A stretch of DNA of 64,000 bases. Origin: an uncultured virus (IMG/VR IMGVR_UViG_3300031951_021468) (taxonomy: Duplodnaviria; Heunggongvirae; Uroviricota; Caudoviricetes). The notes under the pieces were generated by a model. That model worked only from the letters and a program-made list of their open reading frames with translations, was not told the origin of the DNA and searched no databases. Shown here in pieces: positions 45,485-57,205 of this stretch (positions are counted from its first letter, which is position 1; every line of letters begins with the position of its first letter). The stretch lies in IMG/VR virus record IMGVR_UViG_3300031951_021468. The stretch is one strand, 5' to 3'. The position numbers were made by a program, and so were the translations under genes.

Positions 45485-46270
45485 TCATAATGTCAATATT
45501 AAGGGGCCATTTTCTGTAATTGCCACGGTGTGTTCCCAGTGAGCCGAATGAGAGCCATCAGAAGTATATATCGTCCAAGGATCAAGCTTGTCTTTCGTAA
45601 TATCACCCGATCCCATTGTAAAAATAGGTTCTATACAGAATGTCATTCCTGGCACAATATTTACCCCCGAATCTCCTTCTTCATAAGAATTAAGAATCTG
45701 TATTCCTAGCTCATGTAATTCTTGACCTATCGAGTGACCGCAAGCCGCAGATACCACGCCGAAGTTTTTTTTATCGGCCATTTTCTGAATATGCTTTCCA
45801 ATGTCGCTTGTTTTTTTTATGTCTCCTGACATAATTTTTTCAATCGTTGACAAAAGTGCCAAGTGTGTATATTCAGATAGTATTTTTGACTCTTTGTATT
45901 CATCACTGTCATTGTCTTCTACTACGATAGTGATAGCCGCATCGGCATACCAATAAGCTTTAGATATAGCCATGTCCAAGGTTACAATATCCCCCTTTTT
46001 TATCGTATAGTCGGAGGGCGGGGCGTGAATAATTTGATTATTAACTGAAATACAAGTTGCATGCTGGTAAACATGATCGGAAAATCGGGGCTTAAATCCC
46101 TTTAATGCGGCCACTGCACCACAACTCTTAACATACGATTCTCCTATAGAATCAATTTCCAAGGTTGTGATACCTGGCACCACTGACTCTTTCATGATTT
46201 TAAGGGCATCGGCTAAAATGGCCCCAGTGATAAACATCTTTGAAATTTCTTGTTTCGTTTTTAATCTCAT
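45485..46270 (-). CDS. map: Methionine aminopeptidase type I
   Basis: CISVNNQIIH, DIVTLD, ADAA, CGHSIG..LHE, IEPI, SAHWEHTVAIT. Confidence 0.95.
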   Translation of the reverse strand: MRLKTKQEISKMFITGAILADALKIMKESVVPGITTLEIDSIGESYVKSCGAVAALKGFKPRFSDHVYQHATCISVNNQIIHAPPSDYTIKKGDIVTLDMAISKAYWYADAAITIVVEDNDSDEYKESKILSEYTHLALLSTIEKIMSGDIKKTSDIGKHIQKMADKKNFGVVSAACGHSIGQELHELGIQILNSYEEGDSGVNIVPGMTFCIEPIFTMGSGDITKDKLDPWTIYTSDGSHSAHWEHTVAITENGPLILTL

Positions 46271-46384
46271 TACACTTTCCTTGTACAATTTTTAAAACAG
46301 AAAAGGCGCGTTTAACGTCTGCGCCAAGACGACAATTTTATAGGAGGAATCGAATTTACGATAATATGTAAAAATAATTGAAAA

Positions 46385-47547
46385 TCACGAAGGTGTTAGA
46401 ACGCATTACACATAAACACATAATGTGAATATCACTCTGAAAGTGAAACTCAATACAAATGAGATTCATCATAGTGCGCTTCTGCGCACTATGAATACTT
46501 TCAATGATGTTTGTAATGAGCTTTCAACAATAGCTCATTCAACAGAAACTTATAATAAAGTTCAATTGCAAAGAAATGCATATCATGGGATGCGTGAAAC
46601 GCATCCAAGCTTCTCTTCTCAATTAATAATAAGGGCTATTGATGTGGTTACCGCTACATATAAAAAGAAAAGAAGCAAAAATCCAAATTACTTCAAAAAG
46701 ACTTCTGCTGTCGTCTACGACGACAGAGTAATCACTTTTAAAGGAACTGATTTAGTTAATATCTGGACTAATGATGGAAGAATCAATATCCCAATCCAAA
46801 TATACGACAAAGAACGCTTCAAATATAGAAAGGGGCAAGTTGATTTAGTTTATCAAAATGGCAAGTTCTATCTTCTTTGTACTTTAGAAATTCCAACAGA
46901 ATCAGCCTATAACGCCAAAGACGTTATAGGAATAGACTTAGGAGTGAAACAAATCGCTGTAAGTTCTTTAGGAGATGTGTTCTCGGGAGAACACATCGAG
47001 AAGAAAAGAAAACAATATCACTCTCATCGACAAAGATTGCAGAAGCGTGGAACACGCTCTGCAAAAAGAAGAATCAAGAAATGTGGACAAAAAGAATCCA
47101 GATTTAGAAAAGACACAAATCACGTCATTTCAAAACTTTTAGTAACAAAAGCAAAGGCACTCGGATATGCGTTGGCTCTCGAAGAGCTAACGCATATCAA
47201 CAAAAGAGTAACGGTCAGGCGAGTGAATAGAAGTCAAAGAATGAGTTGGGCATTCGCCCAACTCAGAAGCTACATTACTTACAAAGCTGAACTCTATGGA
47301 GTTCCTTTAGCTATTGTTCCTGCTCACTACACGTCTGCGACGTGTAGTGAGTGCGGATATTGTGAAAAAGCCAATAGAAAAAGTCAAACTGTGTTTCTCT
47401 GCATGTCCTGCGGACACACGGAGAATGCAGACTTTAATGCCAGTAAGAATATAGGTTCTTTAGGGGAGCAGTCAACCTCCCTATTGTTCGCTCAGCCGAA
47501 GGCTGAGCTTGTAGCAAGCCACACGCCTTGTGCGTGTGGTAGTTGAC
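46385..47547 (+). mobile_element. tnpB-only (IS1341-like) element; left end approximate
   Basis: No tnpA nearby; right-end hairpin CCACACGC-CTTGT-GCGTGTGG then TAGTTGAC. Confidence 0.7.
46425..47546 (+). CDS. tnpB: TnpB RNA-guided endonuclease (IS200/IS605 family)
   Basis: RuvC-I GIDLG, RuvC-II ALEEL, Zn ribbon CSECG/CMSCG, RuvC-III NADFNA. Confidence 0.93.
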   Translation: MNITLKVKLNTNEIHHSALLRTMNTFNDVCNELSTIAHSTETYNKVQLQRNAYHGMRETHPSFSSQLIIRAIDVVTATYKKKRSKNPNYFKKTSAVVYDDRVITFKGTDLVNIWTNDGRINIPIQIYDKERFKYRKGQVDLVYQNGKFYLLCTLEIPTESAYNAKDVIGIDLGVKQIAVSSLGDVFSGEHIEKKRKQYHSHRQRLQKRGTRSAKRRIKKCGQKESRFRKDTNHVISKLLVTKAKALGYALALEELTHINKRVTVRRVNRSQRMSWAFAQLRSYITYKAELYGVPLAIVPAHYTSATCSECGYCEKANRKSQTVFLCMSCGHTENADFNASKNIGSLGEQSTSLLFAQPKAELVASHTPCACGS

Positions 47548-47567
47548 GATATTCCCAAGCGTCCTTG
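47400..47567 (+). ncRNA. Predicted TnpB omegaRNA (scaffold overlapping the tnpB 3' end, guide from 47548); 5' boundary approximate
   Basis: Established TnpB architecture; terminal hairpin visible. Confidence 0.55.
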
Positions 47568-47804
47568 GTTGATTCGAGCGCAAATCTAATTGGCTTTTTT
47601 AAAGAAGAAAGCCAAAACTTCTTTTCTTCTCGCCTCGGCGATCATATGACTATTGAACTTTCATTCAATGTCCCAGAGCATCGGTTCCGAGGATTACATC
47701 GTATGAGTCTCCCAGCAGAACTTAAATCTGACCAAGAACCCCTGTTGGATTGGGACTCATTTAGGATTCAACTAACAAAATGTTAGTCATTAAAATTTAA
47801 TGTG

Positions 47805-48790
47805 GGAGTTTCAATTTGTAGACTAAAAACTGATTTGTGACGGCTTTTTAGGAGTACAGCACACTTGCGATGTGCTTTGCCTAATTGTCCACTACTGTTG
47901 CCAGCAGTACCTTCACACAGCGGCCTTTTTATACTGGTGGCTTTTCCAGTTTAATGTTAATCTTCTACGTGATCTTCTTGCCGCCGACATTTTACTGCCG
48001 TGAATATCCGCTAAGATACTACGTCTTGAATCCTACGATACATCTTAGACTTGCCATCTTCGATGCTCCTGACTGTCCCACACTCAGGAAATACGCTGCT
48101 TTCAATTAACACAGGACGCGACTTTTGCATTTTTAATAAACAATTGGACTTGAACCAATAATCTACTGTTCAGATAACAGTGCTGTACCATTCAGCTATG
48201 TTTGCAACTTCACGCGAGACGTGCGCGTCCAGCCACTTCATATTGCTTTACAATACAAAATATGACACGCCTCATGTCTTTCACCCTGCTAGGTTACTCA
48301 ACGCGATTTCAAGACTAATACGGCATTGAAGTCCATCTTCTCCGCCTCGCCTTTCATCGTGCTATATAGCCCTTGGCTGCTTAAACCTCGGACAAATATA
48401 ACTACCCTTCGCTCCTTAGATGTCGATGGCTTGCGTGGGCATTGCCGCTTGCAACGGCGATCAAACTGTTATCTACACGGTTGCCTCGATAACGCTGACT
48501 CTTCTCCCTCCATCTTCCACCATATCTCCAGGTTTTGGGCCTGAAGCTCACAGGTGCTGGGCTTGCATGGTTGACCTTTCTTAAGAAAGGCGAGAGACCG
48601 TGAAGTGGCCTGATCTCTTTCTGCACTTTGCAGTGCGATATCTATCGACGCCATGCCGCCGAGAAAAGCTACGATCTGGATTGGTTACCAGATGAAATGA
48701 GTTTCCTCTATCGGGGAGATGCAAACCTAGCTCATTTCTACCATCTGCTCTCGCACGTCTTTCCGTGCCGTCGCAGCTTTTCTCAAACCT
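47805..48790 (-). ncRNA. GOLLD-like large structured RNA; boundaries approximate
   Basis: ~1 kb with no credible ORF and many stems; segments GAGTAA...GAAAGACATGAGGCGTGTCATATT, GCAAAAGTC, GCCACC...AAAAAGGC, GTACT...AGTGGA resemble GOLLD as I recall it; internal tRNA-like insert. Confidence 0.72.
48135..48205 (-). tRNA. Degenerate tRNA-like element embedded in the GOLLD-like RNA
   Basis: D arm GCTG-AATGGTA-CAGC, ACTGT-TATCTGA-ACAGT arm, T arm ATTGG-TTCAAGT-CCAAT; imperfect acceptor, no CCA. Confidence 0.6.
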
Positions 48791-48989
48791 CTATAAAATT
48801 TTCAATTTGCTTTTCAGATCGTTTTGGCTCTTTTCAATTCGTCTTACACTACTTATAACGATTGGCCAAAGAAAATGTTGCAGCTTTTTTGTCTTTTTTC
48901 AAAAAAAGTTTTTTTTAAATGAAATTGAACCTACAATGAGCATCGACAAAACAGGGAAAGAGATTCAAAGAGTGTAAAAAAGAATTATC

Positions 48990-49556
48990 ATGGGTGAAAT
49001 TGATATTAGTGGATATAGCATCGGGGAACTTCGCCGCATTGCAAGTGATTGGCATGGCGGTCAAGGTTCTGCATTGTACTCTTTTGCGTCAACAGGTGTG
49101 GCACATTATCCCTGGGAAGGAATGATGGAAGTCGATCAGTGTTTACAGGGGCTTGATCGCGGAATCTACGATCCCGAAGAAATAGATCAGTTAAGAAAAG
49201 AATTGTTAATTTTAAGACGTTATTTTGAACTTGAAGACAACCTGCAGAGCGACGACGAAGAAGATGAAGAAAACATTACAACTAGTGCTGTGGCCAGCGT
49301 CCTTACAAAGATTTCTCAAATCACTGAAGAGCTTGAGGATCGGGGTATGACAGCTGAAGCATCACAAATGCATGAAGTTTTTATTCGAGTTGCCAAGACT
49401 AAAGAAAAAGAAAATATCCCCACTAATCCTGAGCTTTGGGAAAGCTGCAAAAATTGGGCCAAGGACAAATACGACGTCTGGCCATCAGCTTATGCACTCG
49501 GGGCTGCAAGTAAGCGATACAAGGCTAAGGGCGGTAAGTGGAAAAAAGAGGACTAA
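48990..49556 (+). CDS. Putative virion core protein with internal helical tag and basic C-terminal domain
   Basis: EELEDRGMTAEASQMHEVFIRVAK; PTNPELW...WPSAYA...YKAKGGKW. Confidence 0.7.
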   Translation: MGEIDISGYSIGELRRIASDWHGGQGSALYSFASTGVAHYPWEGMMEVDQCLQGLDRGIYDPEEIDQLRKELLILRRYFELEDNLQSDDEEDEENITTSAVASVLTKISQITEELEDRGMTAEASQMHEVFIRVAKTKEKENIPTNPELWESCKNWAKDKYDVWPSAYALGAASKRYKAKGGKWKKED

Positions 49557-49557
49557 T

Positions 49558-50124
49558 ATGCTGAAAAAGATTGCTCAAGTGGCACACGAATTGGACAAAC
49601 TAGGCCTGCACGAAGAAGCTGATATCCTTACTGATGTTTTGAGTCGGATAGCAAATGTCAACACAACTAATCAAAGGTCATCTTCAAAAGAGTTAGAAGA
49701 GCTTGATTTTGAAGAAAACGTGGAAACACTACACTATGAAGCAAGAGCCGAGTTTAATGATGCGGTGGAAAAATACATTGATGACCCTCGGCTTATTGAC
49801 ATTGGTTATTTTGATAAAATTATCAAATTGGAAAAATCTCCACAAAGAGAAGCTCAGGCAAAGTCCAACAAACCACTAAACAAGCCTTTTCGCACCCCAG
49901 ATGGGCCTAAAAAATTCTCTGTCTATGTCAAAGATGGTGATAAGGTTAAAAAAGTTAATTTCGGCGATCCAACGACTGATATTAAAAGAGACAATCCTGA
50001 GCGCCGAAAGAACTTCCGCGCCCGACATAATTGTGATAATCCTGGCCCAAAGACAAAGGCAAGATATTGGTCTTGCCGAATGTGGGAAGCAGGCAAAACA
50101 GTCGGGGACATGACGGGTAAATAA
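49558..50124 (+). CDS. Putative virion core protein with helical tag and basic C-terminal domain
   Basis: Start MLKKIAQVAHELDKLGLHEEAD; LNKPFRTP.GPKKF.VYV...FGDP...FRARHNC...ARYWSC. Confidence 0.75.
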   Translation: MLKKIAQVAHELDKLGLHEEADILTDVLSRIANVNTTNQRSSSKELEELDFEENVETLHYEARAEFNDAVEKYIDDPRLIDIGYFDKIIKLEKSPQREAQAKSNKPLNKPFRTPDGPKKFSVYVKDGDKVKKVNFGDPTTDIKRDNPERRKNFRARHNCDNPGPKTKARYWSCRMWEAGKTVGDMTGK

Positions 50125-50125
50125 A

Positions 50126-51103
50126 ATGAATCAAAATTTGCTTGCAAAAATTCATCAAACTGCGTCTTTGATTGAAGGGCTTGGTTTACATCATGAAGCA
50201 TCATCTCTTCATGATGTGTTTATTCGTGTTGCCAAAGAAAATAAATCACTTTTGGAACACAAAGATGTCATAGAGTCCGAAATGACCTTGGAAGACGCTT
50301 TAAACAATTATGACTCAAATCTTTATCGCGTAGACCCGAAAGGAAATTGGGATTCAAAAGAATGGATCACTATCGGTGAATTTATTGATTCTATGCCTGA
50401 TGAAGCAATGAACGCTCCTGCAGCTATTGACGCTAATCACATTGCATTTGAATTGCCAGATGTCGGATTTCAAATTATCAATTTAGTACCACAATCAGAG
50501 TGGGATCAGGAATCAGACGACGACATTAAAGAAGCTAACGATCATAAATCCTTCCGAAAAGAACTTGAAAGCCTAATTAATTCATTTTCTCTAGAAAACA
50601 ACAGTGATACGCCTGATTTTATATTAGCTGAATATTTAAGTGATTGTCTTGGCGCTTTTGACAAGGCTGCAAAACGACGCACGGAATGGTACGGCGATGA
50701 CGACGACAACGATGATGTCACTTTCGTGTCAGATGAATTAGCAAAAACTGCGCAGGCAGCCGATTGCTATGGCAAACACCACCTTGCGGATGCTATAGAT
50801 TTAATAACCAACAAATATGCCAAAAACCACGGTGGTTTAGACGATTGGTTTAAGAACGAAAAGTGGGTGGATGTACGGCGACCAAAAAAAGATGGTGGCT
50901 ACGAAGAATGCGGCAGAAGTGATAGTAGCAAAGGCAAAAAGCCCGTTTGCACACCCGCTAATAAAGCCAAAAGCCTGTCTGACAAGGAGCGCAAAGAGCG
51001 CATGAAGCAAAAATCGCGAAAGGAACGTGAGCCTGGCGATGGAAAGAAGCCAAAAACCACAACATACACAGATAAAGCTGGGGGCAAATCGAATATCTCA
51101 TGA
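50126..51103 (+). CDS. Putative virion core protein with two helical tags
   Basis: Tags at the N-terminus and before GGLDDWFKNEKWVDV...CGRS...C.P. Confidence 0.7.
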   Translation: MNQNLLAKIHQTASLIEGLGLHHEASSLHDVFIRVAKENKSLLEHKDVIESEMTLEDALNNYDSNLYRVDPKGNWDSKEWITIGEFIDSMPDEAMNAPAAIDANHIAFELPDVGFQIINLVPQSEWDQESDDDIKEANDHKSFRKELESLINSFSLENNSDTPDFILAEYLSDCLGAFDKAAKRRTEWYGDDDDNDDVTFVSDELAKTAQAADCYGKHHLADAIDLITNKYAKNHGGLDDWFKNEKWVDVRRPKKDGGYEECGRSDSSKGKKPVCTPANKAKSLSDKERKERMKQKSRKEREPGDGKKPKTTTYTDKAGGKSNIS

Positions 51104-54792: not shown

Positions 54793-55680
54793 TTATACTG
54801 AACGGAAAGTTTCATTCTTTTCTGATTCATAAAAAGTGCCACAAGACGCATGAACATCAGGGCCAACTCTTGGAATTATTTGAACTTTTCCTCGCAAAGC
54901 TGAATCAATCATCTGTATATTTCTTGTGATCACTTCATCTGACGATTCTGCTCCTTGAACCTCAGAATATGGATTATAACGCACGAGATTAAACTCAACG
55001 TCTAGATTATGTCTCTCTAGTGCGTATAGCATACTTTCTACATCAGCCTCGCTATCATTCTCACCAGCAATGAAGCAATGATGAATTTTTATTTTTTTCT
55101 TAGAGAAGTCTTGATATTCTTTCAACATGGATAAAGCCTTGTCGATTGGCATCGCTTGCGGTAACCATTTCTTGCGAAAATCTTCTCGAACAGAATAAAG
55201 TGAATAATAAATCGTGGGATGCACCACGCGGAAAACTTGTTTTAACGGACGATCAAGTGATTTGGGCATGATCGTGGATATGTTAAATTTAACTCCAAGA
55301 TCGGGCTGAAATGATGTTGCCAATTTGCCAAGATCATACAAAATTGAATCAGCCTCACTGAGCATGTAAGGATTCGCCATGGCCTCTCCCCGAGCCATGA
55401 AATTATAGTGTATATAATCGGCTTTTTCTCCATCTTGCTGATAGTGTTTAAGAACCTTGCTTGCCTGATTTAAATAATCTACAGGAAGGGTATATGTTGT
55501 TTTCGTTTGCTTGGTCGCCGTGAGGTGACACATACGGCAACCAAGGTTGCACGCAGAAGCCGATGATAGATAACAAATGAAATAATCTCTTGTCTTGCGA
55601 ACATATCGGCTTTCTAGAAAGCCCTGTAAAGACTCTTCAACAAAATTAACAGAGCGGTCAACGTTAGAAATAAGCTTCAT
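54793..55680 (-). CDS. RlmN/Cfr-like radical SAM protein
   Basis: CYLSSASACNLGCRMC (CX3CX2C), FMARGEA, NIST, GENDS, NLVRYNP, ASCG. Confidence 0.8.
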   Translation of the reverse strand: MKLISNVDRSVNFVEESLQGFLESRYVRKTRDYFICYLSSASACNLGCRMCHLTATKQTKTTYTLPVDYLNQASKVLKHYQQDGEKADYIHYNFMARGEAMANPYMLSEADSILYDLGKLATSFQPDLGVKFNISTIMPKSLDRPLKQVFRVVHPTIYYSLYSVREDFRKKWLPQAMPIDKALSMLKEYQDFSKKKIKIHHCFIAGENDSEADVESMLYALERHNLDVEFNLVRYNPYSEVQGAESSDEVITRNIQMIDSALRGKVQIIPRVGPDVHASCGTFYESEKNETFRSV

Positions 55681-56107: not shown

Positions 56108-57205
56108 CTAGGGGCTATTAGCCATCGCCAGATAATAGTTTTTGTATTCGAGGACATCTGTTACATCTTTTGAACAACCATGGAAAACATCTGGTAGTTT
56201 AAATTTATTAGCATCATGTTCACTGTTAAATTCACATTCAATCGTAATTAATCCCTCTGGCCGATCATAAACATCAATTTCTAATTTGTGGTCATCATGC
56301 CACATGTAATGACGAGTTTTTGAAATGTGCGGCATGCTAGGGACAACCAAAAAGTCAAAAACATGTGACGGAATTAATTGTTCCCATTCAGTTCTTTTAA
56401 AGCCCTTGCCACTTTTGGCTGTAATAAAATGTTTATCACCAATCTTTCTTAACCGCAATTCAGTTTGTTCGCGAGGCAGTCTTAAATAGTATTGCTTAAC
56501 TTTTTCGGATGGTAATTCAGCAATAAATGAGGCTGCCTCGGAAGTGACAATCCATTTCCGCTCAATTTCTACGTCCAAGATCGGAGCGAGTAAGTCAATA
56601 ACTCGCTGAAGAACAGCATCAATACCTCCCTCCGCACTAACAAAGTGCCAATTTGGGTGATCTTTCCATGCTTCTATAAGAGCTTTGTCTCTTTGAATGG
56701 CAGTTTCTGCCGTATCGTATCTAGACGGATTAGTGCCTTGAAGCTGATTATACGCATCAGGATTTATGCAGGCAAGTGACTCAATATGGATTACCATGCT
56801 GTACCTATGATGAAGGGCTTCGAGGTTTAGGCCATATTTTTCCACAAGAACCCGCTTGCCCCCGTCCATAAACGCAGCTGGGTCAAGCAGCCCTCTATCA
56901 AAGAAAATAACTGGTTTCTTTTTTGCTTGCGCCGCGTGAAGATGGCCATTTTCCATGTTTAATTGTGTAGGCAAAATAACTTTATTGATATAATCAAGCC
57001 ACGATTCGGAATAATCAATATCTCTTCCTGGTTGAGGATACCCATTGGAAAGCAGCATACTTGCAACTTCGGTCATAAATTCAGCTTTGTGGCTATAATT
57101 TTGCCTAAGAAATTCCATAACTGTTGATTTGCCCGCGAGAGGGCCTCCAGTTAGTGCTATTCTATGCGGGATGTGTTCTATGGATGTATCAAAAAGTTGC
57201 ATCAT
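56108..57205 (-). CDS. AAA_28/NadR-like P-loop ATPase fused to CYTH domain
   Basis: LTGGPLAGKST, FDRGLLD; EIERKW, LRLRK, K.R, LEIDVY, IECEF. Confidence 0.85.
   Translation of the reverse strand: MMQLFDTSIEHIPHRIALTGGPLAGKSTVMEFLRQNYSHKAEFMTEVASMLLSNGYPQPGRDIDYSESWLDYINKVILPTQLNMENGHLHAAQAKKKPVIFFDRGLLDPAAFMDGGKRVLVEKYGLNLEALHHRYSMVIHIESLACINPDAYNQLQGTNPSRYDTAETAIQRDKALIEAWKDHPNWHFVSAEGGIDAVLQRVIDLLAPILDVEIERKWIVTSEAASFIAELPSEKVKQYYLRLPREQTELRLRKIGDKHFITAKSGKGFKRTEWEQLIPSHVFDFLVVPSMPHISKTRHYMWHDDHKLEIDVYDRPEGLITIECEFNSEHDANKFKLPDVFHGCSKDVTDVLEYKNYYLAMANSP

Follow-up and report, generated by a model that had tools for sequence, protein, structure and literature searches.

The 64,000-nucleotide (nt) stretch of DNA analysed here (the window), taken from the uncultured Caudoviricetes virus record IMGVR_UViG_3300031951_021468, carries on its minus strand a non-coding RNA of about 980 nt that is almost certainly a divergent member of the GOLLD family and that holds a transfer RNA (tRNA)-shaped insert in its linker (Table 1). 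The locus belongs to a freshwater phage genome of about 379 kb: a virus record of 378,848 bp (G001, rated 100% complete) has 90% of sampled words in common with the window and is near-identical to it, and PHROG matches among the neighbouring genes give a phage context. An initial annotation, made from the sequence alone, had described the locus as non-coding and stem-rich. Both descriptions hold. The longest open reading frame (ORF) overlapping positions 47565-48990 is of 76 amino acids under translation table 11, and reading TAG as glutamine opened no long frame within the RNA region. The 986-nt stretch that had been annotated folds with a minimum free energy (MFE) of -314.7 kcal/mol, compared with -279.8 +/- 9.0 kcal/mol for shuffled sequences (z = -3.87), and 0 of 20 shuffles folded as well. 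All five minus-strand stems listed at the time are found where they had been placed.

Table 1. Features of the GOLLD locus (positions in the window).
Feature	Position	Strand	Basis or remark
Whole expressed GOLLD RNA, ~980 nt	47803..48784	minus	metatranscriptome contigs
5' extension domain, closed by 14-bp stem, 124 nt	48661..48784	minus	sequence, MFE fold, within RNA contigs
14-bp stem GAGAAAAGCTGCGA / TCGTAGCTTTTCTC	48784-48771 / 48674-48661	minus	sequence
GOLLD 5' domain	48276..48664	minus	R1 match 48664-48552
First 5'-domain hairpin CGGCG / CGUCG	48646..48661	minus	loop 48656-48651
Hairpin GCACT-GCAA-AGTGC	48636-48623	minus	sequence
Hairpin CCTTTC-TTAA-GAAAGG	48590-48575	minus	sequence
GOLLD 3' domain	47814..48275	minus	RF02032 match, 127.9 bits
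GGACGCG / CGCGTCC pair bracketing insert	48230-48224 / 48120-48114	minus	sequence
Linker-clamp helix, 5' strand GGACGCG	48224..48230	minus	pairs with 48114-48120
tRNA-shaped linker insert, Arg(UCU)-like, 71 nt	48135..48205	minus	Infernal and ARAGORN
Linker-clamp helix, 3' strand CGCGUCC	48114..48120	minus	pairs with 48224-48230
Hairpin GCACAT-CGCA-AGTGTGC	47875-47859	minus	sequence

The initial annotation had named the GOLLD family and proposed a search with the Rfam model. This search returned a match to RF02032 over the full length of the model (positions 1-416 of 416) with an E-value of 8.9e-35, well within the E <= 1e-5 that Kretsch et al. (2025, PMC12286853) give as their cmsearch criterion. 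The score of 127.9 bits is lower than the Rfam curated cut-off of 150, which speaks against the assignment and is also the reason why default Rfam annotation misses this GOLLD: a scan of the window at the default gathering threshold reported three tRNAs only, and the match becomes visible in E-value mode. Other GOLLD matches fall under the same cut-off, namely L137 (138.3 bits), L157 (144.8 bits) and L350 (112.9 bits), the last being the closest relative described below. The same model gave a single match in G001, with the same score as in the window, and none in the 14 cellular genomes searched as a control. In the cmscan alignment, 9 of the 10 bracketed pairs of the 3'-domain pseudoknot are standard, and the tRNA appears as an insertion in the unstructured linker of the model; a second insertion lies in a 3' hairpin loop.

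Since RF02032 covers the 3' domain only, the 5' half was tested apart. When viral contigs were screened with a pattern and then with RF02032, a GOLLD turned up in 27 of the 89 records searched. Thirteen env-38-like 5' domains align well, and RNAalifold predicts 88 pairs in them, 33 of which have double changes. A model of the first 121 positions of the 5' domain (R1; the full domain is about 390 nt), built from 12 other GOLLD sequences, matched the window with 32.4 bits and a rough E-value of 3.5e-6. This match is the best in the 64-kb window and lies at the expected start of the 5' domain, a site that nhmmer had also indicated. The motif GGCGG..GCGTC..TAGATA is found 387 nt upstream of the 3' domain here; in the env-38-like class this distance is 324-335 nt. 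In the first 5'-domain hairpin, the loop (GCAUGG) is complementary over 6 bp to CCAUGC (48570-48565), forming a predicted pseudoknot; at the same sites the env-38-like class has GUUUAG and CUAAAC, also 6 bp, with several positions changed on both sides.

The helix that brackets the insert joins the P14 internal loop to the sequence that follows GCAAAAGU. It pairs at 7 of 7 positions here and at 6-7 of 7 in all 26 other GOLLDs compared, with many different sequences, although these counts lean high because the script took the best complement within a 28-nt stretch. On our reading of the alignments, such a linker-clamping helix would be a defining feature of GOLLD RNAs, and the compensatory pseudoknot and the clamp helix together tie the window RNA to the family.

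One could still argue that the locus is not a GOLLD at all, and that it represents a new large RNA of no relation to the family, a protein-coding region or a spurious one. There is no match at the Rfam gathering threshold, blastn of 47700-48900 against a phage collection gave no match, and neither blastn nor nhmmer found sequence-level similarity to other GOLLDs. This alternative is contradicted by the full-length covariance match, by the 5'-domain model hitting in the right place, by the clamp helix and the pseudoknots, by the lack of a long ORF under either genetic code and by the discrete RNA described below. We consider it refuted by the RF02032 match, the R1 match and the clamp helix, and hence exceedingly improbable. 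Rfam scans of the window gave no match to ROOL. A CRISPR-DR2-like match at 47808-47830 (E 0.2) was taken as chance, as it overlaps the last GOLLD hairpin.

The closest relative, L350, was reached via the neighbouring TnpB protein and is the GOLLD of G091, a 478,840-bp virus record with terminal repeats. It aligns with the window RNA from the 5' motif to the 3' end, and in this two-sequence alignment 52 of the 169 predicted pairs are changed on both sides and still paired, including three hairpins of the initial annotation. The 124-nt 5' domain that precedes this alignment is extra in the window RNA; it is not alignable in L350 and has no covariation support, so that, as judged from this comparison, the 5' extension is a lineage-specific domain. 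The proteins encoded at 50126-51103 and 45485-46288 have no relatives in the viral contigs, and synteny was therefore not usable.

Transcription, which the initial annotation had asked to be checked, is evident in freshwater metatranscriptomes. Six RNA runs contain 0.68-0.79 of the sampled words of 47600-49000, about the share of the RNA alone. Four runs from four studies were placed on 46400-50200, and in each of them a single contig of 967-979 nt, free of mismatches and joints, spans the GOLLD RNA (from 47802/5 to 48770/80), at word depths of 80, 72, 44 and 10.8. The flanks, 46400-47542 and 48813-50200, had depth 0 in all four runs, which argues against DNA carry-over, and in run X18 an Illumina adapter abuts position 47803. 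With full-length contigs in four studies and silent flanks, what accumulates is a discrete RNA of about 980 nt in which the 5' extension and the tRNA insert are both present. Its 5' limit was set at 48784, the first base of the 14-bp stem, and its strand was taken from the Rfam match. On the minus strand, a sigma-70 scan detected nothing promoter-like upstream of 48784, and no terminator was found at the RNA 3' end; the ends of the RNA may arise from phage-specific signals or from processing.

We then consider the insert itself. It is called by the Rfam tRNA model (RF00005, 45.1 bits against a cut-off of 29) and by ARAGORN, one of the tools proposed for it, which drew a cloverleaf and read tRNA-Arg(tct) with the anticodon at position 32. 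Its arms are intact, with the D arm GCUG/CAGC, the T arm AUUGG/CCAAU with the loop UUCAAGU, and a 5-bp anticodon stem; the elbow nucleotides are also kept, namely GG in the D loop and GGUUCAAGUCC. As had been noted from the sequence, U33 and CCA are missing: the anticodon loop UAUCUGA has an A at position 33, and the 3' end is followed by AAAAAUGC. In addition, the insert has no position 26, and its acceptor end carries G1.U72 and C2xA71. An alternative register restores position 26 and leaves an anticodon loop of 6 nt, whereas a decoding tRNA would be expected to have 7 nt there, with U33 and a purine at 37. CCA can be added after transcription, and single mismatches do occur in real tRNAs. 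The insert has the third-lowest score among the 33 tRNA-model matches in G001, which also carries a canonical tRNA-Arg(TCT) elsewhere (72.1 bits), and the two closest other tRNAs of the window lie at distances of about 10 kb and 38 kb from it.

The tRNA embedded in L350 reaches 50.1 bits; its loop, UUUCAAC, is canonical, its anticodon is UCA, and its acceptor stem has two mismatches. Among the 14 pairs of the D, anticodon and T arms, 6 differ on both sides between the window insert and its counterpart, and none is broken. The aligned sequences thus indicate that the cloverleaf of the insert is conserved between the two phages and that its decoding identity is not, given UCA in one and UCU in the other.

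Whether the insert could nevertheless be a working tRNA has to be weighed with these features in mind. In such a case GOLLD would be the precursor or store of a tRNA-Arg(UCU) that is excised by RNase P and RNase Z, completed by CCA addition and used to read AGA. The tRNA-model score, the ARAGORN call and the intact elbow nucleotides are consistent with this, and a 2026 review (PMC12990946) proposes 'inhibited storage' of embedded tRNAs; it also cites a Mycolicibacterium GOLLD whose J13/15 linker holds a tRNA-Phe (Morgado et al. 2020, as cited in PMC12990946). On the other hand, A33 stands in place of the near-universal U33, position 26 is absent and the acceptor end is imperfect; the phage record already has a canonical tRNA-Arg(TCT), the L350 orthologue has the anticodon UCA, and the RNA assembled in the four studies is continuous through the insert. 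A further point is that Behra et al. (2019, PMC6582537) describe a pseudo-tRNA gene inside the GOLLD gene of Mycobacterium aubagnense for which no separate transcript was detected. Altogether, the insert is probably not a working tRNA, and we regard its use as a tRNA-Arg as unlikely.

To place the insert among its kind, three collections were surveyed with a pattern that joins a T arm to the conserved post-linker motif; it matched 15 stretches in viral contigs, at least 120 in metagenome contigs and 60 in genome contigs. The L133 and L143 contigs account for two of the 15 viral stretches, and Rfam found a GOLLD in 11 of the 13 others. At the remaining 180 loci a sequence profile passed 30, two of them weakly, and one more is a copy of the RNA of the window; most of the loci that did not pass are terminators 3' of tRNAs. 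The 45 embedded tRNA sequences obtained in this way form 32 clusters at 85% identity. Among the matches listed, 11 of these 32 clusters have a loop without U33, a loop that is not of 7 nt, or a tRNA that cannot be called, compared with 4 of 97 distinct non-embedded tRNAs on the same strand at the same loci (odds ratio 12, Fisher p = 3.2e-5, for clusters that are not phylogenetically independent). An earlier and smaller count had given 7 of 12 embedded against 2 of 107 non-embedded, and L350, found after the survey, would make the embedded share 11 of 33. The profile of the post-linker 3' domain fails on the window's own GOLLD even with filters off, and the survey therefore misses divergent members. 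In the GOLLDs compared, linkers that lack a tRNA measure 36-59 nt and those that hold one 90-119 nt. The loop counts of the survey suggest that shape is what the embedded tRNAs keep, and they put a number on the published anecdote of a pseudo-tRNA in a GOLLD.

The survey also shows how varied the embedded tRNAs are. Several encode CCA and look canonical, for example that of L158 at 69.7 bits. In L135 (1501-1961, minus strand) the linker has D, anticodon and T arms and no acceptor stem, and in L181 it has a canonical Arg(UCU) loop and no 3' acceptor strand; neither is called by tRNA finders. Anticodons that match stop codons occur as well, UUA in two clusters (L179/L272 and L285) and UCA in L350, and in L173 and L261 the embedded tRNA has a loop of 8 nt, in which ARAGORN sees a four-base anticodon.

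Another reading is that the insert is a decaying relic, that is, a tRNA gene captured by recombination into a permissive linker and then left to neutral erosion. In its favour, the length and content of the linker vary widely, remnants such as those of L135 and L181 escape the tRNA finders, and a third of the embedded tRNAs are aberrant among the matches listed. Neutral decay would, however, break pairs, and the 6 of 14 arm pairs that are double-changed relative to L350 leave none broken, an argument that weakens if the changes arose while both copies were working tRNAs. Moreover, the damage is not spread evenly and is concentrated in the anticodon loop and the acceptor end, a distribution that is biased by the requirement for a good T arm. 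We hold the relic reading to be doubtful, with some room left for it.

The explanation that we favour, with moderate confidence, is that the RNA is a divergent GOLLD in which the insert serves as a tethered tRNA-shaped module inside a putative cage lumen and does not act as a working tRNA-Arg. By analogy with the solved env-38 14-mer and the Streptococcus agalactiae 12-mer, RNA-RNA contacts would assemble the GOLLD into a closed homo-oligomeric cage, with the linker directed into the lumen. The insert keeps its D/T elbow and three arms and appears to have lost features on which normal decoding and charging depend: U33, position 26, an encoded CCA and pairing at the acceptor end. From this anatomy and from the comparison with relatives, it most likely stays tethered inside the cage as a tRNA mimic, one copy per subunit, and is probably not released as a working tRNA-Arg. 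There it could be a docking site or decoy for factors that recognize the tRNA shape, or else a tolerated structured filler. The initial annotation had suggested that the insert keeps its elbow and not decoding, and that it may be a processing or structural module. The first suggestion is supported by A33, the missing position 26, the acceptor mismatch, the canonical tRNA-Arg(UCU) elsewhere in G001, the RNA contigs that run through the insert and the surplus of aberrant anticodon loops in embedded tRNAs, and falls short of proof; for the second, a structural, tethered role fits better and a processing role less well.

Several observations weigh against this explanation. The insert passes both tRNA detectors with its elbow and its UCU anticodon intact. 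Arg(TCT) is the commonest embedded identity among the matches listed (6 of 32 clusters), which fits a useful rare-codon tRNA, and canonical loops are present in L350 and in 21 of the 32 clusters listed; it may well be, then, that some embedded tRNAs leave the GOLLD and are put to use. The survey itself is neither complete nor unbiased, as it demanded an intact T arm and used a sequence-only screen, and it includes L190 and L202, which have weak GOLLD evidence. The RNA contigs give neither the strand, nor the exact ends, nor the fraction of molecules cut at the tRNA borders. Finally, the cage is carried over to the window RNA from its solved relatives, and the loops that make contacts between subunits are not mappable on it.

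A bolder version of the tethered-module explanation would have the insert as selected, non-decoding cargo, with 10-14 tRNA elbows in each cage lumen trapping host factors that recognize the tRNA shape. We rate it as distinctly improbable, below the working-tRNA alternative. If it were true, candidate targets would be the anticodon nucleases of anti-phage defence, RNase P, the CCA-adding and modification enzymes and ribosomal sites, and it would provide the first concrete function for the GOLLD cage. The repeated disappearance of U33 or of a 7-nt loop, seen in a third of the embedded tRNAs, would then be adaptive, giving a tRNA that binds and is unusable or uncuttable, and would not reflect decay.

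How does the window RNA compare with the systems already described? In the cryo-electron microscopy literature, the env-38 GOLLD is a 14-mer cage of an 833-nt RNA (PDB 9MEE) with a variable linker inside, in which phage tRNAs are sometimes found (Kretsch et al. 2025, PMC12286853), and the S. agalactiae GOLLD is a 12-mer of a 700-nt RNA (PDB 9L0R; PMC12990946, PMC12286853); the cage, it is suggested there, may enclose its own linker or tRNAs. The window RNA has the two-domain layout, the full-length 3' domain, the start of the 5' domain and the covarying clamp of a known GOLLD, and it is likewise phage-encoded and expressed as one large RNA; many GOLLDs exceed 800 nt, and they often occur close to tRNAs. 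It differs from the solved GOLLDs in being longer, at about 980 nt, and in showing no blastn or nhmmer similarity to members, and it differs from the GOLLDs of tRNA islands in its position outside such an island. The M. aubagnense GOLLD has a tRNA-shaped element in the same linker, judged there to be a pseudo-tRNA (PMC6582537). Unlike the mycobacterial cases, the present one comes from a freshwater jumbo phage and not from a mycobacterial tRNA array, its insert is Arg(UCU)-like with A33 and no position 26, and environmental RNA from four studies shows the insert still present in the full-length molecule. ROOL, the other cage-forming RNA of phages, is likewise large, occurs near tRNAs and assembles into a homo-oligomer whose internal linker is disordered (PMC12286853); in sequence and fold it is unrelated to GOLLD.

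Embedded tRNA folds are familiar from other large RNAs. The tRNA-like domain of transfer-messenger RNA (tmRNA), the 3' tRNA-like structures of plant viruses and the mascRNA of MALAT1 are all recognized for their shape, with alanyl-tRNA synthetase and SmpB, host synthetases and RNase P as the respective partners. The GOLLD insert resembles them in having a tRNA fold within a larger RNA, whereas those modules have known partners, and the likeness is one of analogy only. Since the arrangement, including a pseudo-tRNA inside a GOLLD, is already published, the locus brings in no new category of finding. For the question of what GOLLD does, it offers a clean test case: a divergent member that escapes default Rfam annotation, is abundant in freshwater RNA as a single full-length contig in four studies, and holds an insert visibly unfit for decoding at a site where a related phage has a different, canonical-looking tRNA.

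The GOLLD gene is convergent with a TnpB or Cas12f-like gene at 46425-47546 (plus strand; flanks about 46345-47550), assigned by the Pfam families Cas12f1-like_TNB and OrfB_IS605 and by a PHROG transposase match. Two TnpB relatives of 73-76% identity show DNA similarity through the 3'-end hairpins to about 47550 and then diverge, a pattern consistent with the scaffold of a guide RNA and a guide after it; G001 has one copy of the element. The possibility that the TnpB element reaches the 3' end of the GOLLD gene and guides against it was rejected, as its right end at about 47550 lies some 250 nt away. Between the TnpB stop codon and the GOLLD 3' end, one of the four runs gave a 188-nt contig (47575-47762, depth 3.1), possibly GOLLD read-through or the TnpB guide RNA; a hairpin with a T-run at 47590-47615 (plus strand) reads also as a weak minus-strand terminator.

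Upstream of the GOLLD gene and divergent from it, two plus-strand ORFs, 48990-49556 and 49372-50124, overlap by 185 nt in different frames; probably one start was called too early, the alternative being a frameshift. Genes at 45485-46288, 54793-55680 and 56108-57205, all on the minus strand, are neighbouring phage genes, among which matches to an M24 metallopeptidase (methionine-aminopeptidase-like), a weak radical-SAM or Fe-S protein and an AAA_28 ATPase were found. The 33 tRNA-model matches of G001 include two with the anticodon CUA, which would read TAG, and its tmRNA encodes the tag AENNFAFAA. TAG recoding was considered because of the two tRNA(CUA) genes and set aside, as reading TAG as glutamine neither opens a frame in the RNA nor appreciably lengthens the genes of the window; any such recoding would have to be elsewhere or conditional. 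Lastly, five DNA runs labelled 'fungus metagenome' contain all sampled words of 47600-49000, and a sixth contains 0.96 of them.

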